Shown: positions 8,203 through 30,548, counted from the first letter of the stretch. The stretch: DNA of 32,000 nucleotides from Methylophaga frappieri (GCF_000260965.1 NC_017856.1:1890001-1922000); one strand, 5' to 3'. Notes: generated by a model not told the origin, from the sequence alone. Made by a program: numbers and translations.

Positions 8203-8221
8203 TGTGGTGTCATCTCTCTTA

Positions 8222-9390: not shown

Positions 9391-9401
9391 GGCTTTCCTT
9401 A

Positions 9402-11425: not shown

Positions 11426-11434
11426 GTTGCTACC

Positions 11435-11737: not shown

Positions 11738-11756
11738 TGTGAATCAGCCTTCATTT

Positions 11757-12638: not shown

Positions 12639-12705
12639 GATTAAATTGAGCAACTCCTTGATCTCGTATAGACCGCAACATAGCAAACCACCAAGACTCT
12701 TTCAC

Positions 12706-13395: not shown

Positions 13396-13416
13396 GGCGA
13401 GACTCTCCGCTTCAAA

Positions 13417-14163: not shown

Positions 14164-15332
14164 TATTTGGCTCCCTCTGTAGTGGGTTCAGACGCAACCT
14201 GTTTTGGTTGAGTTTTTTCCGTTTCGACTTGCTCTGAGTTAGTAAAAAATGCCCGTAAAAAAGGGACTTTCGGGGCATATTTATTCCAAATCCCTGCCAG
14301 ACCGTTCGGGAAGAACATGACTACCGCAATAAACAGGCCGCCCATCAGGAATAACCATAATTCGGGGAAAGTTTCGGAAAAGGTTGTTTTACCCGCATTC
14401 ACCAGCAGCGTGCCGTAAACCACGCCGATCAATGACATGCGGCCACCTACTGCGGCAAAGATAACCATTTCTATTGACGGGACGATACCGACAAACGAGG
14501 GTGACATGAAACCGACCTGCAAGGTAAACATGGCGCCACCAATCGCGGCAATCACCGCAGAGATACAAAAGATAAAGATCTTAAAGTTAGACACGTCATA
14601 TCCGGAGAACCGAACGCGATCTTCTTTATCTTTCATGGCAAGCAACAGCTGACCGAACTTGCTGGTCAGGATGAACTTGCCGAGCATAATAGCGCCCAAC
14701 AGCAAAATGGCGTTCAAGAAGTACAGCAGATATTTCGCTGAATCCGTTCGAATATCCCAGCCATTCAAGGTTCGCAGGTCGGTGATACCGTTAATACCGC
14801 CGGTATAGCCCTGTTGACCGACAATCAGTACTGTCAGGATAACGGCAATGACCTGGGTAATGATGGCAAAATAGACCCCCCCCACCCGGCGCTTGAACAT
14901 CGAATAACCAATGATAAAAGCAAATACTGCCGGTACCACGAGAATCGCAATCAAGGTAAAAGTAAAGCTTTCAAACGGAACCCAGAACCAAGGTAATTCA
15001 TAGAGCTGATTCCAATCCATAAAGTCCGGAATACCTGGCGTTGTCTGGATCTTGGTGCTTTCCGGGTCTGATGCTTCCAGTTTTAAAAACATGGCCATGG
15101 CATAACCACCAAGACCAAAGAAAATACCTTGACCCAAGCTCAAAATACCACCATACCCCCAGAGCAAGACCAAGCTGATTGCGGCAAAAGCATAGGTCAG
15201 ATACTTACCAACCAGATTTAACCGAAACAGATCCAGCGCCAGTGGCAAAATCACCAGAATCAGTACAGCGAGAATACCTATTGCCAGGGCACCACGCTTA
15301 CCACCTAACAGTCGTTCATAGACAAAATTCAT
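14163..15332 (-). CDS. urtC: Urea ABC transporter permease UrtC
   Basis: 389-aa polytopic LivM-like permease with AGGAGA 6 nt upstream of the ATG. Confidence 0.9.
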   Translation of the reverse strand: MNFVYERLLGGKRGALAIGILAVLILVILPLALDLFRLNLVGKYLTYAFAAISLVLLWGYGGILSLGQGIFFGLGGYAMAMFLKLEASDPESTKIQTTPGIPDFMDWNQLYELPWFWVPFESFTFTLIAILVVPAVFAFIIGYSMFKRRVGGVYFAIITQVIAVILTVLIVGQQGYTGGINGITDLRTLNGWDIRTDSAKYLLYFLNAILLLGAIMLGKFILTSKFGQLLLAMKDKEDRVRFSGYDVSNFKIFIFCISAVIAAIGGAMFTLQVGFMSPSFVGIVPSIEMVIFAAVGGRMSLIGVVYGTLLVNAGKTTFSETFPELWLFLMGGLFIAVVMFFPNGLAGIWNKYAPKVPFLRAFFTNSEQVETEKTQPKQVASEPTTEGAK

Positions 15333-15349
15333 CTTTTATCTCCTGCTGA

Positions 15350-16273
15350 TTATTTACGAACTTTGATTGAGAACAAGCCTTCAGGGCGCATCATCAAAAT
15401 GATGACGAGGGCCAGCAAGGTAAAGACTTTGGCCATGGAACCACTGATGAAGAATTCCAGAATTGATTGTGCCTGGGCGATAGTAAAGGCTGAGGCAATG
15501 GTGCCAAACAAGCTGGCTGCGCCACCAAAAACAACCACCATAAAGGTATCAACGATGTACAAAGAACCGGATGTCGGGCCAGTCGATGCAATAGTGGTAA
15601 ATGCGGCGCCAGCAACCCCCGCAATACCGCAGCCAAGGGCAAAGGTCAGCCTGTCAACCTGTTTGGTATTGATACCCACGGCGCCACTCATGACACGGTT
15701 TTGCGTTGTCGCACGCACGTTCAACCCCCAGGTTGAGCGATACATCAAGAGAAACACCCCAATGGTGACGATAGTTGTCAGGCCAAGAACAAACATGCCA
15801 TTAATTGGGATGAAAATAGAATCTGTTGGCATCCACGATCCCATTAGCCAGTCGGGTAATGTGGGGCTAACTTCACGCGCACCAAAAATCGACCGGAAAG
15901 ACTGTTGCATGATGAGGCTCAAGCCCCAGGTCGCAAGCAAGGTATCCAGTGGCCGTTTATAAAGATGCCTTATCAAGACAAATTCGGTGAGATAACCAAA
16001 TAGTCCGGCGACAAAAAAGGACGCGATAATCGCGATGAAAAAGTAATATCCCATCAGATCAGGAAAATAGCTTTGGGTCATCACCGAAAGCAAATAGGTT
16101 GTATATGCCCCCATTGCCATAAATTCACCATGGGCCATATTAATGACGCCCATTTGCCCAAAGATGATTGCCAAGCCAAGTGCCATCAGAAGTAACACGC
16201 TGAACAGACTAATCCCGGCAAAGCCCTGCATCGCAAAAATTGACGTCAATTCTTGTATTGAATACTCACCCAT
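15350..16273 (-). CDS. urtB: Urea ABC transporter permease UrtB
   Basis: 307-aa LivH-like permease (GVINMAHGEF motif) with a GGAG RBS. Confidence 0.9.
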   Translation of the reverse strand: MGEYSIQELTSIFAMQGFAGISLFSVLLLMALGLAIIFGQMGVINMAHGEFMAMGAYTTYLLSVMTQSYFPDLMGYYFFIAIIASFFVAGLFGYLTEFVLIRHLYKRPLDTLLATWGLSLIMQQSFRSIFGAREVSPTLPDWLMGSWMPTDSIFIPINGMFVLGLTTIVTIGVFLLMYRSTWGLNVRATTQNRVMSGAVGINTKQVDRLTFALGCGIAGVAGAAFTTIASTGPTSGSLYIVDTFMVVVFGGAASLFGTIASAFTIAQAQSILEFFISGSMAKVFTLLALVIILMMRPEGLFSIKVRK

Positions 16274-16340
16274 AATGGATACTCCGAAACATTTTCCATT
16301 GAACCGAATGGTTATTAGTGATTGTGAATCTGGCTCAGGT

Positions 16341-16367
16341 AGCAGGCTGGCGAGAGGCCAGCCTGCT
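16341..16367 (-). promoter_or_regulatory. Intercistronic stem-loop between urtA and urtB (perfect 11-bp stem, 5-nt loop, no U-tract)
   Basis: AGCAGGCTGGC-gagag-GCCAGCCTGCT lies inside the 118-nt urtA-urtB spacer. Confidence 0.6.
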
Positions 16368-16391
16368 CTGTTCCAAGTCAGTCGTTAAGGC

Positions 16392-17642
16392 TTATTGGTA
16401 GCCTTCAGGGAAAGGATTTGGTTCAATCAGGTCAGACTCATAGACCACGGTTGCCTGACCGTCTTTGTTCCATTTACCAATGCGGGTTTTACTCCACAAA
16501 TGGTGGTTAGGATGTAACTTGACGTAGCCTTCTGGCGCCGTATCGAGTTCGATGTCACCGGCTTCAGAGACGGCCACTACCTTATCGACATCAAAGCTAC
16601 CGGCCTTTTCGACAGCGGCTTTCCACAACCATGGACCAAGATAAGCCGCTTGAGTCACGTCACCAATGACACTGTCATCGCCATGCATTTCCTTGAAGGC
16701 AGCAACGAATTCAGCATTGTTTGGGTTATCCAGACTCTGGAAATACTTCATAACTGAGTAAAAGCCTTCCAGGTTTTCACCACCGATACCCAATACTTCG
16801 TCTTCGGTTACCGATAACGTCAGCAAGGTTTGTTTGTCTGACGTAATACCAGCGGCATTCAGCTGTTTAAACCAGGCAACATTACTGCCACCGACTACTG
16901 CCGCAAAAATAACATCGGGTTTTTTCAGACGAATCTTATTGATTACCGAACCAAACTGGGTGTCACCCAATGGTTTGTACTCTTCACCCACTACTTTGCC
17001 GCCCAACACTTTTTCAATATGAGTACGGGCAATCTTCATTGAGGTTCGTGGCCAGATATAATCAGAGCCAATTAAATAAAACGTTTTGGCATCCTTTTCT
17101 TCAGCCACCCAGTCCAAACCTGCCAGAATTTGTTGTGTCGCTTCCTGGCCGGTGTAGATAACATTTTTGGATTGCTCAAGACCTTCATAAAAAGTCGGGT
17201 AATAGAGCAGACCATTTTCCTTTTCAAACACTGGCAGCGCCGCTTTTCGTGATGCCGATGTCCAGCATCCGAACACAGCAGCAACATCATCATTCACTAA
17301 CAGCTTTCTCGATTTTTCAGCAAAAGTTGGCCAGTCACTCGCGCCATCCTCTTGAATGATTTCAATTTGCCGGCCAAGAATGCCACCACTTTCGTTGATT
17401 TGTTTAATCGCCAGTTTTTCTGCTTCCTGTGCACCGGTTTCACTGATTGCCATCGTGCCAGTTAAAGAATGCAAAATACCGACTTTGACGGTATCGTCAG
17501 TGACGGCCAATCCCGTGGTATTCACTTCGGCAGTAGGGTAATCTGCTGCCATCGCGCTACTGGTAATCAATCCGGCAGCCACCATTGCACTGAACAGGGC
17601 ACCAGTTTTGCCTAAAAATTTTCGTCGGCTAAAGTAACTCAT
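16392..17642 (-). CDS. urtA: Urea/short-chain-amide ABC transporter substrate-binding protein UrtA (FmdD-like)
   Basis: LivK/amide-binding fold. I chose ATG 17642 (AGGAGA 7 nt upstream). The N-terminus MSYFSRRKFLGKTGALFSAMVAAGLITSSAMA looks like a twin-arginine signal. The longer ORF-track version runs into fmdB. Confidence 0.9.
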   Translation of the reverse strand: MSYFSRRKFLGKTGALFSAMVAAGLITSSAMAADYPTAEVNTTGLAVTDDTVKVGILHSLTGTMAISETGAQEAEKLAIKQINESGGILGRQIEIIQEDGASDWPTFAEKSRKLLVNDDVAAVFGCWTSASRKAALPVFEKENGLLYYPTFYEGLEQSKNVIYTGQEATQQILAGLDWVAEEKDAKTFYLIGSDYIWPRTSMKIARTHIEKVLGGKVVGEEYKPLGDTQFGSVINKIRLKKPDVIFAAVVGGSNVAWFKQLNAAGITSDKQTLLTLSVTEDEVLGIGGENLEGFYSVMKYFQSLDNPNNAEFVAAFKEMHGDDSVIGDVTQAAYLGPWLWKAAVEKAGSFDVDKVVAVSEAGDIELDTAPEGYVKLHPNHHLWSKTRIGKWNKDGQATVVYESDLIEPNPFPEGYQ

Positions 17643-17707
17643 CGTGTATCTCCTATCAGAAATTGAAGGTGAACTACGTTGTTCCCTACAGGTTGGTTTG
17701 TTAAAAA

Positions 17708-18043
17708 TTAGTGTCCAAGCATCCAGGGCCTGGCGGTCTTCTTGGTTTGCATCTGCAATCCATTTTTTGCACCAGCAGATTTGGCTGAATTGGCAGAACA
17801 GGTGTGGGTACCCGAACAGCCACAACTGGAACGTCGCAGGGTTTTCGGTTCATGCGCTGATTTTTCATTTCGCTCTTTGGCGACCCGTGTTGGTCTATCC
17901 ATCAAAGCCAGATAAGGCGCCGTAATAATCCGGCTGGCTTTGCCATGACATTCCGGACAAATCATGTCTTCATTGGCTTGTGCCAACTTGCGTAGCGCCG
18001 AAAACTCCCCACAGGTAGCACAACGATAATCATAAATAGGCAT
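17708..18043 (-). CDS. fmdB: FmdB-family zinc-ribbon putative regulatory protein
   Basis: MPIYDYRCATCGEF...ICPECHG (CxxC-x18-CxxC) followed by a Ser/Cys/Gly-rich tail. It sits directly downstream of the formamidase gene with a GGGGAGGGG RBS. Confidence 0.8.
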   Translation of the reverse strand: MPIYDYRCATCGEFSALRKLAQANEDMICPECHGKASRIITAPYLALMDRPTRVAKERNEKSAHEPKTLRRSSCGCSGTHTCSANSAKSAGAKNGLQMQTKKTARPWMLGH

Positions 18044-18062
18044 GTCACCCCTCCCCGTTTAG

Positions 18063-19286
18063 CTAAGACGCTTTACTTAAATCACTGCCTGGCGTGACCA
18101 GTTGCAGCGGCCCATCCACTGACGGATTAATGTCAAAATCAAAAATATCTGTCGGAATCCACAACGTAGCGCAGGCATTAGGAATATCGACTACCCCGCT
18201 AATGTGTCCCTGCACGGGTGCGGTCCCAAGAATCGATAGGGCTTGCTCACCGGTGTAACCAAATTTCTTCAGGTACTCGATGGCATTCAGGCAAGCTTGC
18301 CGGTAAGCCACATGCACATCCAGGTAGTGCTGTTTGCCTTGCTCATCGACTGAAATCCCTTCAAACATCAAAAAGTCGTTATAGGTTGGTGTCAGCGGGC
18401 TGTTTTTGAATAACGGATTTTTAATGCCGTACTTCTTCACCCCGCCTTTGATCAAGCTGACTTTGATATCCAGATAACCGGCCATTTCAATGGCACCACA
18501 AAAAGTGATTTCGCCATCACCTTGGGAGAAATGCAGATCCCCCATCGATAAACCGCCATCTTTGACATAAACCGGAAAATAGATTTTTGAGCCTTTGGTC
18601 AGATCTTTGATATCACAGTTACCACCATGCTCTCTGGGTGGGACCGTCCGCGCGCCTTCCTGAGCGGCTTTTGAGGCTTCATCCCCTTTCAGTCGACCCA
18701 TGACGGCAGATTGCGCATTTGGCGGTAAGGCCAAGGCGGGGACGCGTTCAGGATCAGTTGCGATCAAATCCGCTTCGCGTTTGTTCCACTCATCCAACAT
18801 CTCCCGTGATGGCAAGCAGCCAATCAGACCAGGGTGCATAATCCCGGCAAATTTCACATTTGGCACATGTCTTGAGCTGGCATAGATACCGCTGAAATCC
18901 CAGATTGACTTTCTGGCTTCTGGAAAATGATCGGTTAAAAAACCACCGCCATTTTCTCTGGAAAACAAGGCATTAAAGCCCCACTGAGAATCTTCAAATG
19001 TGCCAACATCCAGAATATCAACCACCATTAAGTCACCCGGCTCGGCCCCTTCTACGCCAATCGGGCCACTTAAATAATGGACTTGCTGTAAATCAACATC
19101 GCGGATGTCATTGGCACTGTCATTATTACCGATCTGCCCACCGGTCCAGTCCATACACTCCACTCTGAATTCATCGCCTGGTTTGACCATGGCAATCATG
19201 GGTAAGTCAGGATGCCAGCGGTTATGAATCTGGCCATCTTGTTCCCAGGGTTTTTTATCTAAATCAAGCTTTACCAACGTTTTCAT
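18063..19286 (-). CDS. fmdA: Formamidase (acetamidase/formamidase family)
   Basis: 407 aa. The N-terminus MKTLVKLDLDKKPWEQ...IHNRWHPD and GGNCDIKDL / HFSQGDGEITFCGAIEM motifs fit the family. AGGAGG RBS. Confidence 0.92.
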   Translation of the reverse strand: MKTLVKLDLDKKPWEQDGQIHNRWHPDLPMIAMVKPGDEFRVECMDWTGGQIGNNDSANDIRDVDLQQVHYLSGPIGVEGAEPGDLMVVDILDVGTFEDSQWGFNALFSRENGGGFLTDHFPEARKSIWDFSGIYASSRHVPNVKFAGIMHPGLIGCLPSREMLDEWNKREADLIATDPERVPALALPPNAQSAVMGRLKGDEASKAAQEGARTVPPREHGGNCDIKDLTKGSKIYFPVYVKDGGLSMGDLHFSQGDGEITFCGAIEMAGYLDIKVSLIKGGVKKYGIKNPLFKNSPLTPTYNDFLMFEGISVDEQGKQHYLDVHVAYRQACLNAIEYLKKFGYTGEQALSILGTAPVQGHISGVVDIPNACATLWIPTDIFDFDINPSVDGPLQLVTPGSDLSKAS

Positions 19287-19329
19287 CTTTACCTCCTGCT
19301 AGGGAAATCAACTTATCTTCAAGCGGCAG

Positions 19330-20466
19330 CTAGAACTGCAGTTGCATTGAAACGACGAATTGATCCTGATCTGCCAATCCTTCTCTTTCCAGGTCGCGAT
19401 AAACCGCAGTGACGGAGGCGTTGTAACCATCAATGAAGTAGTTCACCCCAAAATCTGTACGCTCTGTTTCGCCCGCATCAGAGTCAAAGCTCTGGTAGCG
19501 AACAAATGGCATGAACTGGCCCCAACCCACTTTTTGGTTGAAGATATAGCCCGTACTGACGTAGTAAGCTTCGCCCTGCTCAGACAAAAACACATCATCG
19601 GTGTCGTAATCGAAGTAGGCGGCCTCAAGAGATACCGCACCTGCGGCTAGTTTTTTCTCTACCAGTAAATCCACCGTCCACTGGGAATAATCACCAACGG
19701 CCGTTGTAGAAGCCGCACCATCCCCTTTATGACGACCTGCCACACCAATAGTGAATATGTCTTTGGTGCCAAGATAATTACCGGTGCCGTAATAACCCGG
19801 CTCTTTATCCCAAAAGCTATATTGCAGACGGCCGGCATACATCAGGTCATCATCCTGGTTTGGATTGGTCGCATTACCGCCCCGGCCAGCTTCATTACCG
19901 AGTCCACTGAATTCAAAAATTTTGTCCGCTTCGAACAGTCCAAATGAGTAAGCCAGCCGCTGATCGAATGCCGTTGCTACCAGCGCGACACCATCATCGC
20001 GACCGATAGTGCCGCCATTCCAGCCATAGCGTGCGGTAATATTTGCCCAGTAGCCGTCACCGGAGGTGTAGTAAGGTCCGGCCATGTTGGCGCGACTGCT
20101 TGGTGACAAGAATCGACCCGCCCATAGCGCCATGTCTGGTGTGAACTGAAATATCCCGGCCGCATCAATAATTTGAAAAGAGTCATTGCCACCGGATTTT
20201 TCCGAATTGAACATCCCTTTGATGTATTTATTTAACGAGCCCGAAACATACAAACGCGCACTATCCAGTTCAAAATCGTTGGTGTTGCCACCATCACTTG
20301 CCGCGTCTTCAATATTGCTATAGCTGCCACGCAGACCAAAGCCAACGCTGATGTATTGATCTTCACCAAAGGTAATCGTGCCCGCGGCCTGTGATGTTGC
20401 CATCGGAGCAAGCGTGGTTGTCGAAGCCAGCGCGACCAGATAGGCGACTTTGTTCATTTTTTTCAT
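19330..20466 (-). CDS. fmdC: Outer-membrane porin, FmdC-like (short-chain amide/urea porin)
   Basis: Signal peptide MKKMNKVAYLVALASTTTLAPMATSQA, alternating beta-strand pattern, C-terminal ...SMQLQF. It is the first gene of the fmd block. Confidence 0.7.
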   Translation of the reverse strand: MKKMNKVAYLVALASTTTLAPMATSQAAGTITFGEDQYISVGFGLRGSYSNIEDAASDGGNTNDFELDSARLYVSGSLNKYIKGMFNSEKSGGNDSFQIIDAAGIFQFTPDMALWAGRFLSPSSRANMAGPYYTSGDGYWANITARYGWNGGTIGRDDGVALVATAFDQRLAYSFGLFEADKIFEFSGLGNEAGRGGNATNPNQDDDLMYAGRLQYSFWDKEPGYYGTGNYLGTKDIFTIGVAGRHKGDGAASTTAVGDYSQWTVDLLVEKKLAAGAVSLEAAYFDYDTDDVFLSEQGEAYYVSTGYIFNQKVGWGQFMPFVRYQSFDSDAGETERTDFGVNYFIDGYNASVTAVYRDLEREGLADQDQFVVSMQLQF

Positions 20467-20659: not shown

Positions 20660-21157
20660 ATGGAAATCAATACAAAACAATCACTTATTGGGATATTTTT
20701 ACTTGGCGCGATGGCCATGACGTCAGGTTGCGGGGGCGAATTCAGCTATAAGCGCGGTGCATCGGCAACCGACTTTCAGCAAGAAAAGCAGCGTTGTGAA
20801 AAAGTCGCTGACTCAGCGACTGAACAAGATAAATGCCTGCAAGACAAAGGCTGGTTAGTGGTCGGCCCAGATAAGCCCTTGATTCCTTTGAGTCGAGGTG
20901 AAAGTAAAACGATTGCTGTTGCTGATAAGGCACTTGCTCCCGAAGCTGGAAAACCGGTTGATCCGTTGGAGAAATTGACGGTTAATTCATGGTGGCGTGT
21001 TGGCGCTGGTCCAGAAAAACTGCTTGCCGATAGCGCCGACTGCAATGCGTCATTGGGAGAGGGGCATGCCCCTGAGGCCAACCTGAGCATCGTCACCCGA
21101 GGCTTGCTGGCCTGTATGCAGGACAAAGGCTGGGCCGTGCTATTACAACAAAACTAG
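20660..21157 (+). CDS. Hypothetical lipoprotein with a duplicated Cys-Cys-QDKGW motif
   Basis: Lipobox AMTSG|C, GAGG 8 nt upstream of the ATG. One of only two credible plus-strand genes in the window. Confidence 0.6.
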   Translation: MEINTKQSLIGIFLLGAMAMTSGCGGEFSYKRGASATDFQQEKQRCEKVADSATEQDKCLQDKGWLVVGPDKPLIPLSRGESKTIAVADKALAPEAGKPVDPLEKLTVNSWWRVGAGPEKLLADSADCNASLGEGHAPEANLSIVTRGLLACMQDKGWAVLLQQN

Positions 21158-21158
21158 G

Positions 21159-22283
21159 TCAAGCGTTTGGCGCTTTCAATATGACGGCTGCCTGGTAGCG
21201 CGGCCGACCGTAACCCAATAAACGGTTAAATTCTTTGTGTGTCACAGGCACATATAAGCTATCCGTCAGGGTTTTATCATCATCCCAATCAATATCAGGG
21301 TCATGAAAGTACACAAACGTGTCCGATATGGAGGCCAGTAACACCCAGTGGGGGGATTTGCTTTGATTTAAACGATAAGAGCTTATCAAGGCCACCACTA
21401 ACGCACCGTCGTTCAGGTAATTACGTAGCTCGTTGACATCCAGACCTTGGTAAGTGAGGGTGATGCTGGATGCCGCAATTTGCTGCATAAAGTCTTTATG
21501 GACACACGCCATAACCTGTTTTTTCTCATCACTGCGCACTCCATTGATAAACGGCACGTCATCACTATTGGTAATGAGTGTGGTCGCAAACCCTCTGCGG
21601 TTCGCGGCCAATGCCAAGCCTTGAGCACTACAGCCACCATGGCCTGATGTCATAAAGATGGTGGTCGCCTCTCGCCAAATTTGCAGTTCAAGCGTTTGAT
21701 CCAAGGTCGGCCAATCAGCAGCTAAAGTTTTCATTGCCATCATCAAACTGGCAGGGCCACAGGTGAAGTCGGTACTTTGAGAGTAATGCACCACCTGGTT
21801 TTGCAAGGCATCAGGCTCTGGTTGCAAGACTTTCATCATTCGCATGGCATCAGTGTGGTCTTCATAAAAATCACTGACCACATCAAAGTGCTTATAACCT
21901 AATTTTTGATACAAGCGGATTGCACCCGCATTGTCCGGTCTGACTTCAAGACGGATAAAACTTCTGCCTGCTGCCAACGCCGCTTTTTCTATTGCCACCA
22001 TCAGCTGGTTAGCAACCCCTTGTTGTCGAAAATCAGGCGATACGGCGAGAGAATAAATACGTCCTAAAGAGGTGCCTCTGACATATAAAATCAACGCATA
22101 ACCAGCTAACTGATCGTTTCTTTCCGCCAGCAATAATAATGCGTTGGCTTTATTTATCATCCAGCGAAAACTGCGTGGCGACAGCCGATCTGAGGTAAAA
22201 CACACCCGCTCCAGATTCACCAGCGCAGGCACATCCTCTAAGGTTGCGGTCCGGATATGTAGCGATTTTTCAGTTACGCACAT
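21159..22283 (-). CDS. Bifunctional GNAT N-acetyltransferase / papain-fold (C39-like) cysteine peptidase
   Basis: Residues 1-155 are GNAT (RQQGVANQL acetyl-CoA loop, RLYQKLGY). Residues 165-374 are peptidase-like (QSTDFTCGPASLMMA, SPHWVLL, FHDPD). The ATG lies 1 nt after the upstream gene's stop. Confidence 0.8.
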   Translation of the reverse strand: MCVTEKSLHIRTATLEDVPALVNLERVCFTSDRLSPRSFRWMINKANALLLLAERNDQLAGYALILYVRGTSLGRIYSLAVSPDFRQQGVANQLMVAIEKAALAAGRSFIRLEVRPDNAGAIRLYQKLGYKHFDVVSDFYEDHTDAMRMMKVLQPEPDALQNQVVHYSQSTDFTCGPASLMMAMKTLAADWPTLDQTLELQIWREATTIFMTSGHGGCSAQGLALAANRRGFATTLITNSDDVPFINGVRSDEKKQVMACVHKDFMQQIAASSITLTYQGLDVNELRNYLNDGALVVALISSYRLNQSKSPHWVLLASISDTFVYFHDPDIDWDDDKTLTDSLYVPVTHKEFNRLLGYGRPRYQAAVILKAPNA

Positions 22284-22284
22284 G

Positions 22285-23247
22285 CTACTGGCCCGTTAAT
22301 CCCTCAAGCGCCATTTCAATGACCTGACGGCCACGAAATAAAACCAATTCCTGCCATTGCGTCTCATTCGGGCAAAAATAATCCTGCAAGGCATGTTTAA
22401 TATCCAGGGTTGCTTGATCAGACCAATCCACCTTCCCTTTTTGTTGTAACTGATGGTCAGCATACAACACCTGTAACATCTCACTATTACCAAAAGTGCC
22501 GTATTCCAGCGTCAGGAAACAGACCTGCTCTCCCTGACCATGCCAAAAATAATCATGCAATCCATATTTCATTCCAGAACTGGATGTGCCAAGTGCTGGC
22601 TCGGTCACCGTTGCGCCAAACAAATTTCGAGCCGTTTGTGTGGCTTTACTACCGGGGGGATGATCACAAATTAATTCACCATATCCATAGGGGCCGAGGC
22701 CACTATGAATATCGATGACAACGACGCTGTCGCGTTTTTCTGGCTTAATTTGCAATGCCAGCTGCTCGATGACTTCTCGTGACCAACTCGGCTTATCGCC
22801 TCCGAAGTATAGTGCATCACGCTGCTGATATTGACCTTGGCTTAAAGTGTCGAAAAGCGCTCTCTGACCACCAATATCTGCGGTATCCTGCTGACTCAGT
22901 TTTGCCCAAACCTGAAGCGCTTCAACTGAATCCGGCAGCGGCGCCGCGAAATCGACAAAATTTCGATTAATATCGATGCCATCATTGTCACTTCGGGATG
23001 CCCAAGCAAATCCCCAGGGATTAATCGCGTGGACCAATATCACACACACCTCTGCAGGCAAGCGTCGGTGACGACCCATAAAGTCAGACTGAATCGCTGA
23101 GCCCACCCCGCCTTCCACGCCATGCAGACCAGAAACCAAAACGAGTACATGCTTAGCTTTGGGGTTACCCGCCCAAGCAATATCGCAATACAGTTTTTCA
23201 TTTTTTGGACCACGCAAAGGATGCGCAATACTGTTAAACCGTTCCAC
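22285..23247 (-). CDS. DUF2817 / M14-like zinc carboxypeptidase-fold protein; the 5' end appears frameshifted (see finding at 23247-23336)
   Basis: SGLHGVEG, INPWGF and DINRNF motifs. The open frame begins only at a GTG, while the family-typical N-terminus (FSQRYAEARNTFF) lies in another frame at 23271-23336. Confidence 0.8.
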   Translation of the reverse strand: MERFNSIAHPLRGPKNEKLYCDIAWAGNPKAKHVLVLVSGLHGVEGGVGSAIQSDFMGRHRRLPAEVCVILVHAINPWGFAWASRSDNDGIDINRNFVDFAAPLPDSVEALQVWAKLSQQDTADIGGQRALFDTLSQGQYQQRDALYFGGDKPSWSREVIEQLALQIKPEKRDSVVVIDIHSGLGPYGYGELICDHPPGSKATQTARNLFGATVTEPALGTSSSGMKYGLHDYFWHGQGEQVCFLTLEYGTFGNSEMLQVLYADHQLQQKGKVDWSDQATLDIKHALQDYFCPNETQWQELVLFRGRQVIEMALEGLTGQ

Positions 23248-23497
23248 AACTGAACTGGTCTCGACAGCCGAAAAAACGTATTACGTGCCTCAGCATAACG
23301 TTGGGAAAACACGCTCAAAACAGCATCTGCATACATGACATCAACGCTCCTGAAAAAGTTGGCGAAGAATAGGCGTTTTGTCGGATTTTGACCAGACAAT
23401 CTGCTGCTTTGCAAAATTTTTTTGTTGCGTAACGGACGATTGGTTTTATCATGCACAAATTGGCATTAATCACTTTCTGGAGCGTGCTGCTGACTTT

Positions 23498-24982
23498 ATG
23501 AGTAACCATTTGATAATTGTAGAAAATCTTGGTGACTGGGCACCTTACTTTCCAAGCGCTCAAGTCGTCGCCGTTGATGATTACTTGCAAAACCCGAGTG
23601 TGATTTCTGGTGGTCGCGCGCAAATCATCAATTTGTGCGGCAGCCTCGATTACCTCAGTCCAGGCTATTACTGCTCAATGGTCGCTGAAGCCCGTGATCA
23701 TCGTGTGATGCCAAGTCTGCGTACTATCAATGATTTATCGCGTAAAAGTCTCTACGCCTTTGATCTGGGTGAGCTCAGCAACCAGCTGGATAAAGTGATT
23801 GCGGCCTGTGGCAAGCAGTCAGAAACACAGTTCAAACTCACCGTCTTTTTTGGTCAATGTGAATTCAAGGCACTGCAAAAGCTGGCGAGACAAATTTACG
23901 AGCAATATCCCTGCCCAATTCTGGAAATCGCGTTTACCCATAAAGGCCATTGGTTAATCAGTCAGATTCGGGCTGGCGCGTTGACCCAGCTTAATGAACA
24001 CGATCAAGATTTATTCGCCAATGCGCTGGATGCATTCAGTCATAAACTGTGGCGAAAGCCCTCACGCCGCCGGCAATACCGCTATGACATGGCCATTTTG
24101 CATAACCCGCATGAGACGATGCCGCCAAGCGACGCTACTGCACTAAAGCGGTTTATCAGCAGTGGTAAACGTATTGGCATTGATGTCGAGCTGATTACGC
24201 CGCGAGATTACATTCGTTTGGCTGAATATGATGCCTTGTTCATTCGTGAAACGACGGCTATCGACAACCATACCTATAAATTCGCCCGTCGGGCCGAGAG
24301 TGAAGGCTTGGTGGTTGTCGATGACCCAACCTCCATTATTCGCTGCACCAACAAGATTTACCTTAAAGAATTGCTGGAAAAACATCAGTTGCCCATGCCT
24401 GAGTCGCATCTGCTTTACCGCAATGATACGACCGGGCTACAAAAACTGTGTGAGACAGCTTCGTTTCCGTTAGTTATGAAAATTCCGGATGGCGCGTTTT
24501 CCAAAGGGGTCATCAAGGTCAACAATGCCGATGAATTGCAAACCAATGCCGCTGCCTTTTTCCAGCAATCGGCCATTATCCTGTTGCAGGAATTTATGTT
24601 TACTGACTATGACTGGCGTATTGGCGTGTTTAATAACCAGCCCATCTACGCCTGTCAGTACTTTATGAGTAAAGGTCACTGGCAGATCTATAATCATAAT
24701 AGTAAAAAAGGCACCGCCTCAGGCAAATCCACGGCCATACCGGTGTCAGAAGTACCGGAAAAAGTCCTTAAAATCGCCACCAAGGCGGCCAAATTAGTTG
24801 GCGACGGACTTTATGGTATTGATATTAAGCAGAGCGGCAACCGCATTGTTATCATCGAGGTCAATGATAATCCGAGCATCGACGCCGGTGTCGAAGACGA
24901 TTATCTCGGCATGGCATTGTACGACGATATTATGCGGGAGTTTTTACGCCGACTGGAAGCCACTAAAGCGGCACGTGGCTAA
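23498..24982 (+). CDS. RimK-like ATP-grasp amidoligase with an N-terminal RLAN-type domain
   Basis: The C-terminal ~290 aa are a RimK-type ATP-grasp (FPLVMKIPDGAFSKGV, LLQEF, IIEVNDNPS). The N-terminal ~200 aa are an extra domain. I chose the first ATG at 23498, because the ORF-track TTG at 23378 runs toward the divergent gene. Confidence 0.85.
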   Translation: MSNHLIIVENLGDWAPYFPSAQVVAVDDYLQNPSVISGGRAQIINLCGSLDYLSPGYYCSMVAEARDHRVMPSLRTINDLSRKSLYAFDLGELSNQLDKVIAACGKQSETQFKLTVFFGQCEFKALQKLARQIYEQYPCPILEIAFTHKGHWLISQIRAGALTQLNEHDQDLFANALDAFSHKLWRKPSRRRQYRYDMAILHNPHETMPPSDATALKRFISSGKRIGIDVELITPRDYIRLAEYDALFIRETTAIDNHTYKFARRAESEGLVVVDDPTSIIRCTNKIYLKELLEKHQLPMPESHLLYRNDTTGLQKLCETASFPLVMKIPDGAFSKGVIKVNNADELQTNAAAFFQQSAIILLQEFMFTDYDWRIGVFNNQPIYACQYFMSKGHWQIYNHNSKKGTASGKSTAIPVSEVPEKVLKIATKAAKLVGDGLYGIDIKQSGNRIVIIEVNDNPSIDAGVEDDYLGMALYDDIMREFLRRLEATKAARG

Positions 24983-25006: not shown

Positions 25007-25043
25007 AAAGATGCCAGATTGGTTCTGGCATCTTTCGCTTTTT
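25007..25043 (+). terminator. Rho-independent terminator after the RimK-like gene
   Basis: An 11-bp stem AAAGATGCCAG/CTGGCATCTTT with a 7-nt loop, followed by CGCTTTTT. Confidence 0.7.
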
Positions 25044-25097: not shown

Positions 25098-26174
25098 CTA
25101 ACTGGAATGATGTAACGCTTTCGTTCGATACAGCATATATAACGCGATAGGCGCACCCACTAAACCGATAACCGCATTTAAATGGAATACATGTCGACTC
25201 CAGGGCATGTGCACCACCCAATCAGCCGCTAATCCCAACGTGGCGCCAATCAGTCCGGCTGCGGGTAATAAAATCCGATGATCGGCACTACGCATAAATG
25301 CCCGCGCCAGTTGCGCCGCCACCAGGCCCAGAAAAGCGACCGGACCACAAAAAGCCGTCACCACACCACATAACAAACCAATCACCATCAAGGTTATGGC
25401 TTTGACACGCCCCACCGCCACGCCCATTGATGCCGCATAATTTTCCCCCAACAATAAACTGTTTAACGGTTTAATCAGCGCGATACTGGCGATCAGCCCA
25501 ACGATCACACAGGGAATCAGGATCTGTAATTGTTGATCGGTCGCCCCAGCGAAACTGGCATCATTCCAAATTTTGAAAGCCTGGGCCTGATTTTCATCAA
25601 TAAAGTGCATCAGCATGCTGATTAATCCGACCGAAAAATAACCAATCATCAAGCCCATAATCAGCAGTGTTACCACCCCGACGCGACGCGACAGTAATGC
25701 CAATAACCCCAGAATGGCACAAGAACCCAAAATCGACGCGACGGCTAAGCCAATATCACCAATCAAACCGTAACGTAATAAAAACGCGTTGCCGACCACA
25801 CCGGTCAACGTCACTAACAAAGCACAAGCCAATCGCGCGCCATGAACAATGCCTAACACATACGGATCGGCCAGTGGATTACGAAACAAGGTTTGTAGCA
25901 TCAAGCCAGCCACCCCCAACGCCGCACCTGAAAATAAGGCATTTAATGCTCTTGGTAATCGAAATTCGAGAATAATATTGGCCCAGGCCGCATTAACCTC
26001 AGTGGTTCCCGTTAATACCGCTTCCCAGACGGCAGCAAGCGGAATCGCCACACTGCCTACGGTGAGTTCAGCAAAAAATAAGGCCAGCGTTAACAAACTG
26101 ATCGCAGCCAGTAAAGCTTTTCGGCTCAACGCCGGCGAAAAAACGGAGCTTGTTGAAATCGTCTTTATCGTCAT
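25098..26174 (-). CDS. Iron-chelate/cobalamin-type ABC transporter permease (FecCD family)
   Basis: Polytopic, with RLPRAL, GAALGVAGLMLQ and GPVAFLGLV motifs. I chose ATG 26174 (2 nt after the upstream stop). An alternative ATG at 26204 would overlap the upstream gene by 28 nt. Confidence 0.88.
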   Translation of the reverse strand: MTIKTISTSSVFSPALSRKALLAAISLLTLALFFAELTVGSVAIPLAAVWEAVLTGTTEVNAAWANIILEFRLPRALNALFSGAALGVAGLMLQTLFRNPLADPYVLGIVHGARLACALLVTLTGVVGNAFLLRYGLIGDIGLAVASILGSCAILGLLALLSRRVGVVTLLIMGLMIGYFSVGLISMLMHFIDENQAQAFKIWNDASFAGATDQQLQILIPCVIVGLIASIALIKPLNSLLLGENYAASMGVAVGRVKAITLMVIGLLCGVVTAFCGPVAFLGLVAAQLARAFMRSADHRILLPAAGLIGATLGLAADWVVHMPWSRHVFHLNAVIGLVGAPIALYMLYRTKALHHSS

Positions 26175-26176
26175 AT

Positions 26177-27403
26177 CTAGGGTAACTGTCGTAGGAATTG
26201 CCATTCTGGTTCAGCCAGCGTTAAACGCTCGGGATGTAATACCGCAATCACTTCGGCTAACTGACGCTCTGGATGTGTCATGCTTTGGTCTTGAAAAGGT
26301 GACGCCCAGGCACCGGTGTAATCCCGATCCCACGCATAAACCTGATCGTTTTCCACTGACTGAAACCAGCCATGTAAGGGATTCGCGCTAATTAACGCGT
26401 TTTTATCTTTTTGTCCGGTCATCGTGCCTAACCACACATCGGCTTGATGGGCACCGGCATACACGGATTCAAATGGCAGAAAAATGAGGCTCCCTGCTCC
26501 TTGATGCGCAAAAATAAACTCGCCCCCTGCATCACGAATTAATTGGGCTTTTTGATTTTGCTGGGCAAACGTCTCAAAACTGGCACGGCTTGATAAATAG
26601 CCGGCCATCACCTTAGGTCGGTTGCTGACATCAGCGACTAACGCCTGCAAGGCATGATAACGTTCAACGCGTTGATTAAAAATGGCTTCAGCGTTGTTTT
26701 CGCGATTGGTCATCAACGCCAGCAGCTTTATCCATTCTGCTCTACCGAGTGGATGAGTTTCATGATGATCGGCTTGCGGTACAGCGGTAACGCCCAGCTC
26801 CCACAATCGAGGATGCATATTGCCGGCCGGATAAGCGGAATAAAAACTCAAATAGACATCGGCTTCAACCGACATCGCTTGCTCAATCGAGGCATGCCCA
26901 TAACCCCACATGTCATGCACCAAACCTTGTTTAATGCGTTGTTGCACCGCAGGCACCGTGACGCCACGGGTGTTATGCGTGCCGTAAAGTCGATCAACGA
27001 TGTCTAATTCAGCTAAAGCGCCTAATACCGAGGCGTTGCCAGCAATCAAACGCTGAATCGGCACTTGAATCACCGGTACATGCTTGGCTTGTTTTGGTAG
27101 CGGCGTGCCACATTGCACCAGCAAAAATTCTATTTGCTCACCGGTATTGGCATTGGGTTTGAACCTGACCCGTTTGTAATGTTGATGGTATTCCACAGAA
27201 AGTTGGGTGGAGTAAGCAAATTCCGTTTTATTCGGAAAATAATCTACATTGGGATCAAAATCCGCCACACAGGCATTATCGAGATTGGCAGTGGGAGATT
27301 GAGGCCCGATCGTCTGCTCAGGCCAGGACTCGCGTTCTGGCGGATCAATTTGTGAACATGCTGTTAACGTAACCAGCCAAAGTAAGCCTACTAACGCACG
27401 CAT
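26177..27403 (-). CDS. Periplasmic substrate-binding lipoprotein (iron-siderophore/cobalamin type) with a ~100-aa N-terminal extension
   Basis: Lipobox LTLTA|C. A class III binding-protein-like core starts near PIQRLIAGNASVLGALAEL. The start overlaps the ATPase stop (TAATG). Confidence 0.78.
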   Translation of the reverse strand: MRALVGLLWLVTLTACSQIDPPERESWPEQTIGPQSPTANLDNACVADFDPNVDYFPNKTEFAYSTQLSVEYHQHYKRVRFKPNANTGEQIEFLLVQCGTPLPKQAKHVPVIQVPIQRLIAGNASVLGALAELDIVDRLYGTHNTRGVTVPAVQQRIKQGLVHDMWGYGHASIEQAMSVEADVYLSFYSAYPAGNMHPRLWELGVTAVPQADHHETHPLGRAEWIKLLALMTNRENNAEAIFNQRVERYHALQALVADVSNRPKVMAGYLSSRASFETFAQQNQKAQLIRDAGGEFIFAHQGAGSLIFLPFESVYAGAHQADVWLGTMTGQKDKNALISANPLHGWFQSVENDQVYAWDRDYTGAWASPFQDQSMTHPERQLAEVIAVLHPERLTLAEPEWQFLRQLP

Positions 27404-28410
27404 TAGGCTGGTGTCTCTTGCGTGGCCAATGGTTCTGTTTGTAAGCGTTTAATGACTTTGACCATTTGTGCCATGCTGTCGAACGCTTGATGCTGGGCAT
27501 CAGCAATAGATAGCTGATATTGACCGGCATCGCTATGGATTCGTACTTGCGCGCTGTCACTTAGTCGACAACCAGCCCGTAACAAGGCTTTTTTAGCCCA
27601 GACAAAATGAATGCCGCTGCCCGTGAGTTTGACGGGAAAGTGGCCTTCACTGCCGACACGAAGTTCCGCATTTTCCAAATCAAACTGTAAGCCATCACTT
27701 TCGAAGGTCAGAGACAACGTCCCGCTCATGGCTAAATCTTCCGGCCCGCCAATATGTAATTGTCGCTGGCCATCAATCAGCCAAAACGTATCGGCATAAC
27801 GCAGTGCCAAGTCCAGATCATGGGTGGACAGCAACACTGCTAACTGGTGTTGATGCGCCAAATCCTGTAACAGCTGTATGATTTCGATTCGTCTTGGTAA
27901 ATCGAGAAACGCCGTCGCTTCATCCAGAATTAACACGTCAGGTTGTTGCGCCAGTGCTCTGGCAATCATCAGTTTTTGACGTTCTCCGTCAGAGAGTTCC
28001 GACACTAAACGCTGGGCCAGATAGCTTGCATCCGCTTTGTCCATGGCGTCAGCAATAATTTGATGATCGGCCTCACCCAGTTTGCCCGACCAGCCGATGT
28101 AGGGATAACGACCGAAACTTACCAGCTCTTCACCGCGTAATAATGGCGGCGTCACCCGTTCTGTTAACACTACGGCTAATCGTTTTGCGCGTTCCTGACT
28201 ACTGAGTTGACTGATGGCCACATCACCCAAATTCACACTGCCGCTGACACTGACTTGCATGCCTGCCAACGTTCGAATTAATGTCGACTTTCCTGAGCCG
28301 TTTGCTCCAATTAAGCAGACAAATTCACCGGGTTGAACGGCTAAATCAACGGGCCCGATAAGTCGAGTCCGTTGATAGCCTACTTCCAGTTGATGCGTGG
28401 TTAAACTCAT
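27403..28410 (-). CDS. Iron-chelate-type ABC transporter ATP-binding protein with a ~100-aa C-terminal extension
   Basis: Walker A GANGSGKST, LSDGERQ, ILDEATAFLD and H-loop STHD. The start overlaps the TBDR stop (TAATG). Confidence 0.9.
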   Translation of the reverse strand: MSLTTHQLEVGYQRTRLIGPVDLAVQPGEFVCLIGANGSGKSTLIRTLAGMQVSVSGSVNLGDVAISQLSSQERAKRLAVVLTERVTPPLLRGEELVSFGRYPYIGWSGKLGEADHQIIADAMDKADASYLAQRLVSELSDGERQKLMIARALAQQPDVLILDEATAFLDLPRRIEIIQLLQDLAHQHQLAVLLSTHDLDLALRYADTFWLIDGQRQLHIGGPEDLAMSGTLSLTFESDGLQFDLENAELRVGSEGHFPVKLTGSGIHFVWAKKALLRAGCRLSDSAQVRIHSDAGQYQLSIADAQHQAFDSMAQMVKVIKRLQTEPLATQETPA

Positions 28411-30548
28411 TAGAAACGCATGCCAAATGTCGCAAATAGGGTTCTTGGTGCGCCCGGGAAAGTCGGCACGAATGAACCACCTGAATCGTAGTAACGACGA
28501 TCCGTCAGGTTATGCAGGGTTAACTGCACTTTATATTTATCTGCCACACCGAACCGATAAGCCACATTGGCATCCCAACGGGTATAGGAAGGTAGCTTAA
28601 AGTCATTGGCAGAGTTGGCCTGACGCGCGCCCACATAGTTCGCGCCCAATCCGACACTCAAGCCATCCAGTTGCCCCAGAAAGTCATAGGTTGACCAGAT
28701 ACTGGCGCTGCGGCGCGGCGCATTTTCCAGCAAGTTGCCTTCTAGACCGCTATCACTGTCTTCACTGACATAGGCTTTTAACTGGGTATAGTTCGCCAGT
28801 AAACGCCATTGCGGGGTGATGGCGTAAGGTATGTCAATTTCCCAGCCGCGACTCCGCTTTTCACCCACCTGAATCGAATAATTCCAATCAAGCGGATCCG
28901 AAACAACCCCATTCTCACGACGAATATCAAACCACGATACGGTTGGTTCTAAACGGCCATCCAATAAGCTCAATTTCACGCCGGTTTCCAGTTGCTCACC
29001 CTTTGATGGTGCAGGCAAGGTGCCACTGCGTAACATGCCACTAAACGGTTCGGTTAAGAATGACTCTGCCCAACTGGCATAAACTGAGATTTCTTCTACA
29101 GGCGTCCAAGTTACCCCTACACGCGGTGAAAACGCATCATCGTAACGGCGTAAAGCGTCATCAATCGGTAAATATTCAGCGTAGCCTTTGTTCTTGCTGC
29201 GGTCATAGCGCAAGCCTAATAACAAACGCCATTGCTCAGAAAATTTAATTTCATTCTGCAGGTAAACGCCGATCGTGTGACTGGAATATTTGGATGAATC
29301 AAAATGCGTCAACGGCCCTGATACGGCACCATATTGTGGGTTATATAAGCTAATTGGAATATTCACTGGGAAACCAAACGGACTGACATCCGCGTACCCA
29401 TCAAAATCCCAGTAATCGTGATTGTAATCTGAACCAATCAGCACCCGATGCTCGACCTGACCGGTGTTAAACGTATTGCTCAGTTCGGCCATCACGGTAG
29501 CATCGACCTGTTTATCGACATTACGTCGTTTACTACGATTGACCATTGGATTACTCGGATCGGTGTAATCGACTGGCGCACCAAATCCATAGGCATACCA
29601 AAGCCCATCGGATCTAGCCCATGAACCTTGAATGCCGGTATGCAGTTTCCAGCCATTATCAAATTCATGATCGACCACTACGGAACCGAGCACGCTTTTG
29701 GTTTCAATATTCGCGTCAGGTTCGGCATAGCTGTTTTCAATCGGCACCGTCAGAAAAATCGGATCACTACCAAATCCGCGATCAAATCCGCCTTGCCGGT
29801 GACCGAGTTCCATTTCGGCATTTAAGGTGGTTTTAGGGGAGATTCGCCATTCTAGCACCGGCGAAATAAATTGCGATTCCGTATCCAGATTGTCACGGAA
29901 GCTGCCACTGTCTTGGAACGCCCCGGTCACCCGATAGCTGACGTTATCGGATAACGGCCCGGTAGTATCAAACGTGGCACGGTAAAAATCTTCACTGCCA
30001 GCGGTAAAATCGATTTCTGTTTGCGCAATATCTAACGGCTTTTTGGTCACCAGATTTACCACACCGCCCGGCTCGAAACGGCCATATAATGCTGATGCTG
30101 GTCCTTTAAGCACTTCGATTTGTTCAATATTGATTAACTCATCAACCGGTACAAATGCACTGCGTCGAAAACCATTTTTCAAGTTCGCATTTGTCGGAAA
30201 GCCACGTAGTCGAAAACGATCATTGCTACCGCCCCAGCCAACTTGCGGCGTCACACCTGGCACTGAACGCAACGCTTCACCCAGGGTAATTACGCCACGA
30301 TCTTCCATTAATTCTCGGGTAACCGTTTGAATGGAAAACGGCGTTTCCTTAATTGAGGTATCACTTTTATTAGTGGAGGGTGCGACGGTTGAGCGATAAG
30401 CCCGTTCACGCGTGCCGGTTATCGTTAGCATGTCTAATGTGTAATCACTTTCTTGAATTACTGGCGCTTCTTCTGCTGAAACAGCCCCACTAAAAGATGC
30501 CATAACAATGAAAAGCAAAAAATTCTGCTTTTTTAAGCTATTTAACAT
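28410..30548 (-). CDS. TonB-dependent outer-membrane receptor
   Basis: Signal peptide ...ASFSGAVSA, plug motifs (ETPFSIQTVTRE, LRGF, IEVLKGPASALYG), C-terminal HNLTDRRYY...FGMRF. Confidence 0.9.
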   Translation of the reverse strand: MLNSLKKQNFLLFIVMASFSGAVSAEEAPVIQESDYTLDMLTITGTRERAYRSTVAPSTNKSDTSIKETPFSIQTVTRELMEDRGVITLGEALRSVPGVTPQVGWGGSNDRFRLRGFPTNANLKNGFRRSAFVPVDELINIEQIEVLKGPASALYGRFEPGGVVNLVTKKPLDIAQTEIDFTAGSEDFYRATFDTTGPLSDNVSYRVTGAFQDSGSFRDNLDTESQFISPVLEWRISPKTTLNAEMELGHRQGGFDRGFGSDPIFLTVPIENSYAEPDANIETKSVLGSVVVDHEFDNGWKLHTGIQGSWARSDGLWYAYGFGAPVDYTDPSNPMVNRSKRRNVDKQVDATVMAELSNTFNTGQVEHRVLIGSDYNHDYWDFDGYADVSPFGFPVNIPISLYNPQYGAVSGPLTHFDSSKYSSHTIGVYLQNEIKFSEQWRLLLGLRYDRSKNKGYAEYLPIDDALRRYDDAFSPRVGVTWTPVEEISVYASWAESFLTEPFSGMLRSGTLPAPSKGEQLETGVKLSLLDGRLEPTVSWFDIRRENGVVSDPLDWNYSIQVGEKRSRGWEIDIPYAITPQWRLLANYTQLKAYVSEDSDSGLEGNLLENAPRRSASIWSTYDFLGQLDGLSVGLGANYVGARQANSANDFKLPSYTRWDANVAYRFGVADKYKVQLTLHNLTDRRYYDSGGSFVPTFPGAPRTLFATFGMRF

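Follow-up and report, generated by a model that had tools for sequence, protein, structure and literature searches.

Within a 32,000-nucleotide (nt) stretch of the Methylophaga frappieri JAM7 chromosome (NC_017856.1:1890001-1922000, from a replicon of 2,697,465 bp), here called the window, positions 21159 to 24982 carry a gene module built around a RimK-type ATP-grasp ligase with an additional N-terminal RLAN domain. The other genes encode a GNAT acetyltransferase fused to a C39-like papain-fold domain and a putative zinc peptidase of the DUF2817 family; the window proteins are AFJ03031 (GNAT fusion), AFJ03032 (DUF2817), and AFJ03034 (ligase). We find that these genes are linked across genomes well above chance, that GNAT and ligase form the invariant core of the module with the two peptidases as frequent accessories, and that the ligase is a paralog of the housekeeping RimK and not the enzyme that modifies ribosomal protein bS6. 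As to function, our tentative preference, held at somewhat less than even confidence, is that the module makes a short N-acetylated acidic peptide in the cytoplasm, similar to N-acetylaspartylglutamate (NAAG) or N-acetylglutaminylglutamine amide (NAGGN), and that the peptidases hydrolyze or transfer the product.

The three open reading frames (ORFs) lie where a preliminary description of the window, made from the sequence, had placed them, and that description was also right about the single nucleotide that separates the DUF2817 stop from the GNAT start. All five of its domain assignments were upheld by profile searches against Pfam and NCBIfam. The features are as follows, with protein positions in amino acids (aa).

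21159-22283, minus strand: GNAT + C39-like fusion gene, 374 aa, AFJ03031 (ORF call, PF00583 and PF11814)
21810-22283, minus strand: GNAT domain, aa 1-158 of AFJ03031 (PF00583, 3e-19)
21159-21797, minus strand: C39-like papain-fold domain (DUF3335), aa 163-374 plus stop (PF11814, 1e-83)
22285-23336, minus strand: DUF2817/M14-fold zinc peptidase gene with a 1-nt deletion inside (PF10994, 1e-73)
22285-23247, minus strand: annotated piece of the DUF2817 gene, 320 aa, GTG start, AFJ03032, the sole part in the GenBank record
23271-23276, minus strand: run of six Ts (T6), frameshift site of the DUF2817 gene (frame change in the sequence; six relatives have one more base)
23337-23497, no strand: divergent intergenic (promoter) spacer of 161 bp between the ligase gene and the DUF2817 ATG at 23336
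23498-24982, plus strand: RLAN-RimK ligase gene, 494 aa, AFJ03034 / WP_014704454 (ORF, PF14401 and PF08443)
23498-24067, plus strand: RLAN domain, aa 1-190 (fold predicted to be ATP-grasp-like but truncated)
24068-24982, plus strand: basic linker and RimK-type ATP-grasp catalytic module, aa 191-494, with invariant ATP/Mg ligands
25007-25035, plus strand: intrinsic-terminator-like hairpin 24 nt past the ligase stop, with a 12-bp stem and T-rich tail (consensus match only)

To assess linkage, we sampled 80 loci, one per species, each encoding a relative of the ligase, and searched each for the other two proteins. A GNAT gene adjoins the ligase gene in 76 of the 80 (75 divergent, 1 codirectional). 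The C39-like domain is present in at least 46, a lower bound because some of the loci with GNAT only are contig ends or likely frameshifts. DUF2817 lies between the GNAT gene and the ligase in 13 loci, among them those of all Methylophaga, Marinospirillum, strain HdN1, and several metagenome-assembled genomes (MAGs), at 38 to 45% identity. For two further loci the upstream sequence was too short to judge partners, and in another two neither partner was found despite adequate flanks. The proposal that the three genes belong together in other genomes is therefore borne out by these counts and by the other arrangements described below, but not as an equal trio: the C39-like domain is missing from about one-third of loci and DUF2817 from about five-sixths.

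The pairing of GNAT with ligase extends to Alphaproteobacteria and Aeromonas, in varying orientations. In Azospirillum and Tistrella, the GNAT-C39 gene precedes the RLAN-RimK gene in the same direction with a gap of about 40 bp, on megaplasmids or chromids (L097:3856-6452, L099:3884-6494), while an Alcanivoracaceae genome has a codirectional operon of ligase, DUF2817, and GNAT-C39 in that order. A divergent GNAT without the C39-like domain stands beside the ligase in Aeromonas (34% identity), Lysobacterales have a 157-aa GNAT without a peptidase domain, and Pseudomonas aeruginosa and Pseudomonas syringae carry the two-gene core without DUF2817. When the search was started from DUF2817, the full trio was also found in an unrelated gammaproteobacterial MAG; DUF2817 occurs outside the module as well, since a Caenispirillum homolog stands alone.

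A full-library search with RLAN alone returned 741 clusters at 50% identity, in which most full-length proteins are about 490 aa long. Three proteins of 663 to 671 aa, however, are GNAT-RLAN-RimK single-chain fusions, and one fragment fuses DUF3335 to RLAN. Because the module flanks are not conserved while GNAT adjoins the ligase in 76 of 80 loci, and because such fusions exist, we regard GNAT and ligase as a unit. No further conserved partner was seen downstream of the GNAT gene past clade-specific cases. Likewise, no conserved precursor or target gene was found near the module, and the window holds no genuine ORF with an acidic C terminus; these ORF and flank checks agree with the earlier statement that no substrate gene is evident nearby.

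The clade-specific neighbors are recorded here in their own right. Two of the GNAT-RLAN-RimK fusions come from short contigs. Two independent short contigs (L092:2816-3019, L093:2346-2549) each have, about 290 bp downstream of the fusion gene, an ORF of 67 aa that is very basic (MAKKASKKKPREIVVVGSKVKE...). In one genome only, a SET-domain (lysine methyltransferase) gene begins 12 bp after a fusion gene (L094:5001-7600, 7679-11992), and alongside the same locus runs a convergent polyamine cluster with agmatinase, carboxynorspermidine decarboxylase-like, carboxynorspermidine dehydrogenase-like, and arginine decarboxylase genes. In the P. syringae group (L003:3848-4747, L004, L026, L027), a gene for a lipoprotein-type polysaccharide deacetylase (PF01522) overlaps the GNAT-C39 stop by 4 nt. 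TerB lies downstream of the GNAT gene in some Methylophaga, and a 9-kb Legionella adelaidensis plasmid record has a RimK family gene at its edge.

We turn to the ligase itself. PF14401 (RLAN) matches aa 27-176 at 1e-52 (178 bits against a cutoff of 25), and PF08443 (RimK-type ATP-grasp) matches aa 285-462. The listed homologs, all of which carry PF14401, share 50 to 88% full-length identity with it, and those that are full length share its start methionine. The linker between RLAN and the ATP-grasp half is conserved and very basic (WRKPxxRR). An AlphaFold2 (AF2) model of the full-length protein reached a predicted local distance difference test (pLDDT) score of 80 and a predicted template modeling (pTM) score of 0.76, and its last ~300 aa can be superposed on RimK structures with a template modeling score (TMt) of ~0.77. 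RimK structures are the top Foldseek matches of this model, at ~20% identity, and LysX and ArgX are also near.

The alignment with Escherichia coli RimK (EcRimK) places K328, E365, D442, E454, and N456 of the ligase, invariant in 36 of 36 sequences, opposite K141, E178, D248, E260, and N262. R374 (EcRimK R189) and R250 (EcRimK R64) are likewise invariant in all 36. In EcRimK, R189 holds the acceptor by its C-terminal residue and R64 the incoming Glu, and the arginines of the belt that accommodates poly-Glu include R8, R96, R98, and R102 (PMC10375531). At the belt positions, the ligase family has N or D in place of R8, T in place of R98, and Y in place of R102, while R282 (EcRimK R96) is R or K. 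Judged from this alignment, three of RimK's six poly-Glu belt arginines appear to be lost in the ligase, and both arginines of the catalytic center appear to be kept.

One could still take the ligase for the housekeeping bS6 glutamylase RimK, with neighbors that are unrelated to it. The rimK_fam model does match (TIGR00768, 5e-27), and the best match in the PDB is RimK. The scores nonetheless fall below both curated NCBIfam cutoffs (94.8 versus 143.4 bits for TIGR00768 and 41.8 versus 331 for PRK10446), identity to RimK structures is only ~20%, the protein has an extra domain of 190 aa, and its neighbors are conserved across classes. Furthermore, P. aeruginosa encodes a canonical RimK (PDB 7QYR) plus a 495-aa RLAN-RimK ortholog, and P. 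syringae likewise has a canonical RimK (PDB 7QYS) plus an RLAN-RimK ortholog. Because the canonical enzyme coexists with the ortholog in Pseudomonas, a role other than bS6 glutamylation is indicated, and we consider the housekeeping explanation extremely improbable. On this point, the missed cutoffs and the Pseudomonas genomes side with the preliminary description, which had set the ligase apart from the bS6 enzyme.

The RLAN domain modeled alone also reached a pLDDT of 80. Its Foldseek matches in the PDB are nearly all ATP-grasp proteins (ArgX, LysX, PsnB, RimK, ITPK1, and synapsin), with E values down to 1e-4 and template modeling scores (TMq) of 0.53 to 0.57. By our reading of the model, its secondary structure elements follow the order of a pre-ATP-grasp domain joined to a lid-like beta-alpha-beta-beta unit, and the catalytic C-domain is missing. 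The model suggests that RLAN is a truncated, noncatalytic ATP-grasp-like half-module placed ahead of an active one. That RLAN arose by duplication of the ATP-grasp half of the same protein was considered and found no support in sequence, as the hhalign probability was 2% and not significant.

The second core component is the GNAT domain, which PF00583 matches at aa 20-130 of the 374-aa fusion (3e-19). Its best NCBIfam match is rimI (TIGR01575), at 80.9 bits narrowly below the cutoff of 86.4; the GNAT part of the fusion protein P0334, at 90.5 bits, is above it. The nearest solved structures are the N-terminal acetyltransferases VipF, YpeA, Naa20, RimI, and Ard1. By our reading, the CoA motif R-x-x-G-x-A is present as R-Q-Q-G-V-A, and E113, Y130, and Y140 are invariant.

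The remainder of the fusion protein matches PF11814 at aa 166-370 (1e-83, 280 bits). Q169, C175, H312, and D328 do not vary among 28 sequences, with a Gln-to-Cys spacing of 6 and a His-to-Asp spacing of 16, spacings that we take to agree with those of papain/C39-type enzymes. A canonical C39 bacteriocin-processing peptidase was considered and rejected; the domain has a GNAT as its fusion partner where such a peptidase would have an ABC exporter, and no conserved ORF for a precursor was seen near it.

The family match and these residues confirm that a papain-fold domain is fused to the GNAT, as first described, but the domain may be a transacylase and not a releasing peptidase, for which CtaG and BtrH provide precedent. 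Taken further, this gives an alternative for the whole module, in which Cys175 would carry an acyl or peptidyl group derived from the ligase or the GNAT and pass it to an amine, such as a polyamine, a cell envelope component, or a secondary metabolite. CtaG, which HHpred relates to PF11814 and BtrH, is a demonstrated transacylase whose partner is an ATP-grasp ligase that acts iteratively (PMC7183216). The module's enzyme has its Cys-His-Asp triad intact, polyamine biosynthesis genes stand beside one fusion locus, and a polysaccharide deacetylase gene overlaps the end of GNAT-C39 in the P. syringae group. Each of these neighbors, however, is confined to one locus or clade, many lineages do without the C39 domain, a carrier-protein gene adjoins the module in none of the 12 Pfam-annotated loci (L001-L006, L087-L089, L091, L094, L095), and the flanks of the module are not conserved. 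We consider assembly by transacylation decidedly unlikely.

The sequence of the third gene, DUF2817, has an irregularity that went unremarked in the preliminary description. The 320-aa ORF scores 249 bits against PF10994 (1e-73), contains the motifs HGVEG and DINRNF, and has a weak match to the M14 enzyme MpaA. Yet the ATG at 23336 opens MYADAVLSVFSQRYAEARNTFF, which is out of frame with the 320-aa ORF, and the ORF's own frame meets a TAA at 23283-23281. At the T6 run at 23271-23276, six of six aligned relatives from the Methylophaga group have one extra base, which makes the window's version a 1-nt deletion. Adding one base at this run yields a 350-aa product that aligns end to end with 17 homologs of 356 to 376 aa, and the N-terminal segment lost through the frameshift contains the invariant F21. 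The DUF2817 gene is thus frameshifted in the JAM7 sequence, either by a real lesion or by a homopolymer sequencing error. A homopolymer miscall in JAM7 is plausible because the genome of the sister strain JAM1, published with that of JAM7 in 2012, was obtained by pyrosequencing and had to be corrected afterwards (PMC5918138).

In 18 DUF2817 sequences, the reconstructed protein included, H72, E75, R125, H211, and E278 are invariant; H72, E75, and H211 match the zinc ligands of M14 enzymes, R125 the substrate-polarizing Arg (NRN), and E278 the catalytic Glu. The frameshift also bears on the spacer. The divergent 161-bp gap is present in the sequence, and relatives have similar spacers of about 150 to 200 bp, but measuring it as first described silently reads through the frameshift. 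A scan of the 161-bp spacer for sigma-70-like promoters gave weak matches only, with a count not above that of shuffled sequence.

Across the four catalytic domains of the module, all catalytic residues are conserved, consistent with catalytic competence. Inspected by eye and without a predictor, the three translations show no signal-peptide-like N terminus. Gene linkage, the fusions, the conserved catalytic residues, and the paralogy to RimK are established, and it is the chemistry, the order of its steps, and the role of RLAN that we infer in what follows. The GNAT would first acetylate an amino acid or short peptide at its alpha-amino group. The ligase would then phosphorylate the terminal carboxylate of the acetylated molecule, with R374 (the RimK R189 equivalent) gripping it, and add an acidic amino acid, most likely L-Glu, gripped by R250 (the RimK R64 equivalent). 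This would give an acidic di- or oligopeptide that is N-acetylated, with one or a few residues added and no long poly-glutamate tail, the product being short because three of the six belt arginines appear to be gone. The C39-type Cys-His-Asp domain and DUF2817 would be optional and would hydrolyze the product, although the Cys domain might alternatively pass it onward. RLAN, presumed catalytically dead, would act as a platform that binds a substrate, a partner, or a ligand.

Fusions of two enzymes are most typical where both act in succession on one small substrate. The N-acetyl-peptide model draws its fit from the core pair, the single-chain fusions, the apparent belt loss, the lack of a linked substrate gene, and the enzyme logic of the NAAG and NAGGN pathways. 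That RimK-family enzymes can make small N-acetyl peptides is established, RIMKLA being NAAG synthetase (PMC10550729).

The main competitor is the type of function that the preliminary description had inferred, a writer and eraser of amino acid tails. In the version that acts on protein termini, the ligase would add Glu or Asp to the C terminus of an unlinked protein, the GNAT would acetylate a protein N terminus, and DUF2817 would trim the tail, much as CCP deglutamylases counter TTLL ligases and RimB counters RimK; the fused endopeptidase of C39 type might be what exposes the N terminus for acetylation. Several observations weigh against a small N-acetyl peptide and point in this direction. 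The GNAT's closest relatives (RimI, Naa10/20/30, and VipF) acetylate protein N termini, and one fused GNAT clears the rimI cutoff. The ligase's structural neighbors RimK, LysX, and ArgX all act on acidic protein C termini, and the R189 equivalent that grips a C-terminal residue is invariant. Because the relatives of both core enzymes are protein directed, a protein or peptide target would be favored. The SET-domain gene 12 bp past one fusion gene hints at protein modification, the very basic WRKPxxRR linker is conserved, and a RimK that works with its own protease for tail cleavage is already established (PMC11957051). Two further points weigh against the N-acetyl-peptide model: the belt-arginine argument combines a molecular dynamics study of E. 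coli RimK with an alignment at ~20% identity, and the host taxa are not limited to halophiles, so that an osmolyte role is not indicated.

On the other side, protein tailing would have to accommodate the missing conserved target gene nearby, the loss of three of six belt arginines, and the many loci in which the erasers are missing, and there is no obvious reason to fuse N- and C-terminal protein modification in one polypeptide. We regard modification of protein termini as less likely than not, yet as a strong competitor. Of the original inference, the presence and linkage of writer and eraser families hold, whereas the tail writer/eraser function now has an alternative of about equal weight, since a small N-acetyl-peptide pathway accounts no less well for the GNAT-ligase core and the fusions.

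A bolder variant joins the two protein-directed activities. Here, the RimI-like GNAT and the RLAN-RimK ligase would constitute a hitherto unrecognized bacterial "termini code," in which one specific, unlinked protein is acetylated at its N terminus and glutamylated at its C terminus, with Cys- and Zn-dependent erasers and with RLAN, as a pseudo-ATP-grasp domain, recognizing the target. It is conceivable that the ribosomal pair bS18/bS6 is the target. We think this variant unlikely; if true, it would be a bacterial counterpart of the tubulin code of TTLL and CCP enzymes, present in P. aeruginosa.

A search of the full-text literature found no experimental work on the module or on its DUF2817, DUF3335, and RLAN families, in agreement with the earlier impression that it had not been studied experimentally. 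The combination is not unrecognized, however, as the RLAN Pfam family and the GNAT-DUF3335 fusion stem from prior comparative genomics, and NCBI protein names also predate this analysis. The NCBI names are "RimK family protein" and [quoted passage not shown] Iyer and colleagues reportedly gave the first description of RLAN and of the GNAT-papain fusion, in Mol Biosyst in 2009. A passage of PMC10318531 mentions the GNAT-DUF3335 fusion and cites Iyer et al. 2009, and a passage of PMC4431377 calls operon links between ATP-grasp and GNAT genes previously observed. Klebsiella CfmP was considered as a related case and set aside, as it is a TupA-like ATP-grasp enzyme and not relevant. None of the three proteins matched the PADLOC defense models at an E value of 0.001 or below. 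What is new here are the counts that define the GNAT and ligase core, the tridomain fusions, the apparent loss of belt arginines, the prediction of an ATP-grasp-like fold for RLAN, and the frameshift in the JAM7 DUF2817 gene.

Knowing the product would either bring to light a new metabolite, an acetylated acidic peptide, or reveal a protein modification that is new in bacteria and has erasers of its own, and would give functions to three families of "unknown function," RLAN, DUF3335, and DUF2817. Orthologs in genetically tractable Pseudomonas make the module directly testable.

The surroundings of the module in the window contain further genes. The gene for a 165-aa predicted lipoprotein, Q7C_1889 (20660-21157, plus strand), with a lipobox-like "MTSGC," converges on the GNAT-C39 gene; the protein matches no Pfam or NCBIfam family and forms a singleton cluster in a collection of 15 billion proteins. 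On the minus strand at 7594-20466 lies a block that, by eye from the translations, resembles a nitrogen-scavenging cluster. It has ORFs of the size of urease subunits and accessory proteins, together with an ABC transporter set of five genes, the first of which (477 aa) resembles a urea-binding protein. A small ORF with a zinc ribbon, a formamidase-like one of 407 aa, and a porin-like one of 378 aa belong to the block as well. Past the ligase and convergent with it (25098-30548, minus strand) are what look, again by eye, like a TonB-dependent receptor gene and an uptake operon that encodes an ATPase and a periplasmic binding protein along with a FecCD-type permease. Other Methylophaga (L005/L006) have a TonB-dependent receptor at the matching position.

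How does the module compare with characterized systems? In the mammalian NAA/NAAG pathway, where NAA is N-acetylaspartate, NAT8L acts with RIMKLA/B and aspartoacylase, and the bacterial NAGGN pathway consists of Ngg, AsnO, and an M42 peptidase. These pathways and the module share a GNAT, a RimK-like ATP-grasp ligase, and a metallopeptidase; aspartoacylase and DUF2817 belong to one M14-related fold group, and Ngg is itself a GNAT-ATP-grasp fusion, a layout analogous to that of the GNAT-RLAN-RimK fusions. The module differs in that its GNAT is RimI-like and that RLAN and the C39-like domain have no counterpart in these pathways. As a candidate identity, the NAGGN synthetase Ngg (TIGR03103) was rejected, with a score of 31.8 bits, on the GNAT part only, and 27 to 33 for the fusions against a cutoff of 569. 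No amidotransferase or M42 gene stands beside the module in the window or in the annotated neighbor loci.

Two antibiotic systems resemble the module in another respect. Closthioamide CtaD/CtaG and butirosin BtrJ/BtrH likewise pair an ATP-grasp ligase with a papain-fold enzyme that has a Cys-His-Asp triad and is tied to PF11814 by HHpred (PMC7183216). They are thiotemplated on carrier proteins within secondary-metabolite clusters, whereas the module's papain-fold domain is fused to a GNAT, and the annotated loci showed neither a carrier-protein gene nor such a cluster next to the module. In the tubulin code, TTLL glutamylases are opposed by the M14 deglutamylases of the CCP family. The likeness is one of analogy only, an ATP-grasp Glu ligase opposed by an M14-fold zinc carboxypeptidase; the tubulin system is eukaryotic, has a protein substrate, and lacks a GNAT or papain-fold partner.

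Related modules include the RimK-based systems of bacteria. RimK/RimB(/RimA), which glutamylates ribosomal protein bS6 in E. coli and Pseudomonas, shares with the module a RimK-clade ATP-grasp enzyme with identical ATP/Mg ligands, the R189 and R64 equivalents, a dedicated peptidase, and a cytoplasmic setting. In contrast, the module's ligase has the RLAN domain, ~20% identity, subcutoff scores, and three belt arginines apparently lost, and its partners are GNAT, papain-fold, and M14-fold enzymes where those of RimK are a retropepsin-like protease and an EAL protein. The RloABC system of P. aeruginosa consists of the ATP-grasp enzyme RloC, the seven-transmembrane inactive transglutaminase RloB, and the secreted retropepsin RloA (PMC11957051). 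It too is a paralogous RimK-like ligase module with its own peptidase, found in the same genomes, and it was a comparative-genomic prediction tested only in 2025; the module differs in having no membrane component or secreted protease and in its other accessory families. RimK/RimB remodels the proteome in Pseudomonas, and RloABC was tied in 2025 to osmotic stress tolerance, antibiotic sensitivity, and biofilm formation (PMC11957051). Taken together, a RimK-like ligase with a dedicated peptidase is a known theme, from which the module differs by RLAN and by every partner. It would be a third RimK-like system, widespread in gamma- and alphaproteobacteria that include P. aeruginosa, P. syringae, Azospirillum, and Legionella.

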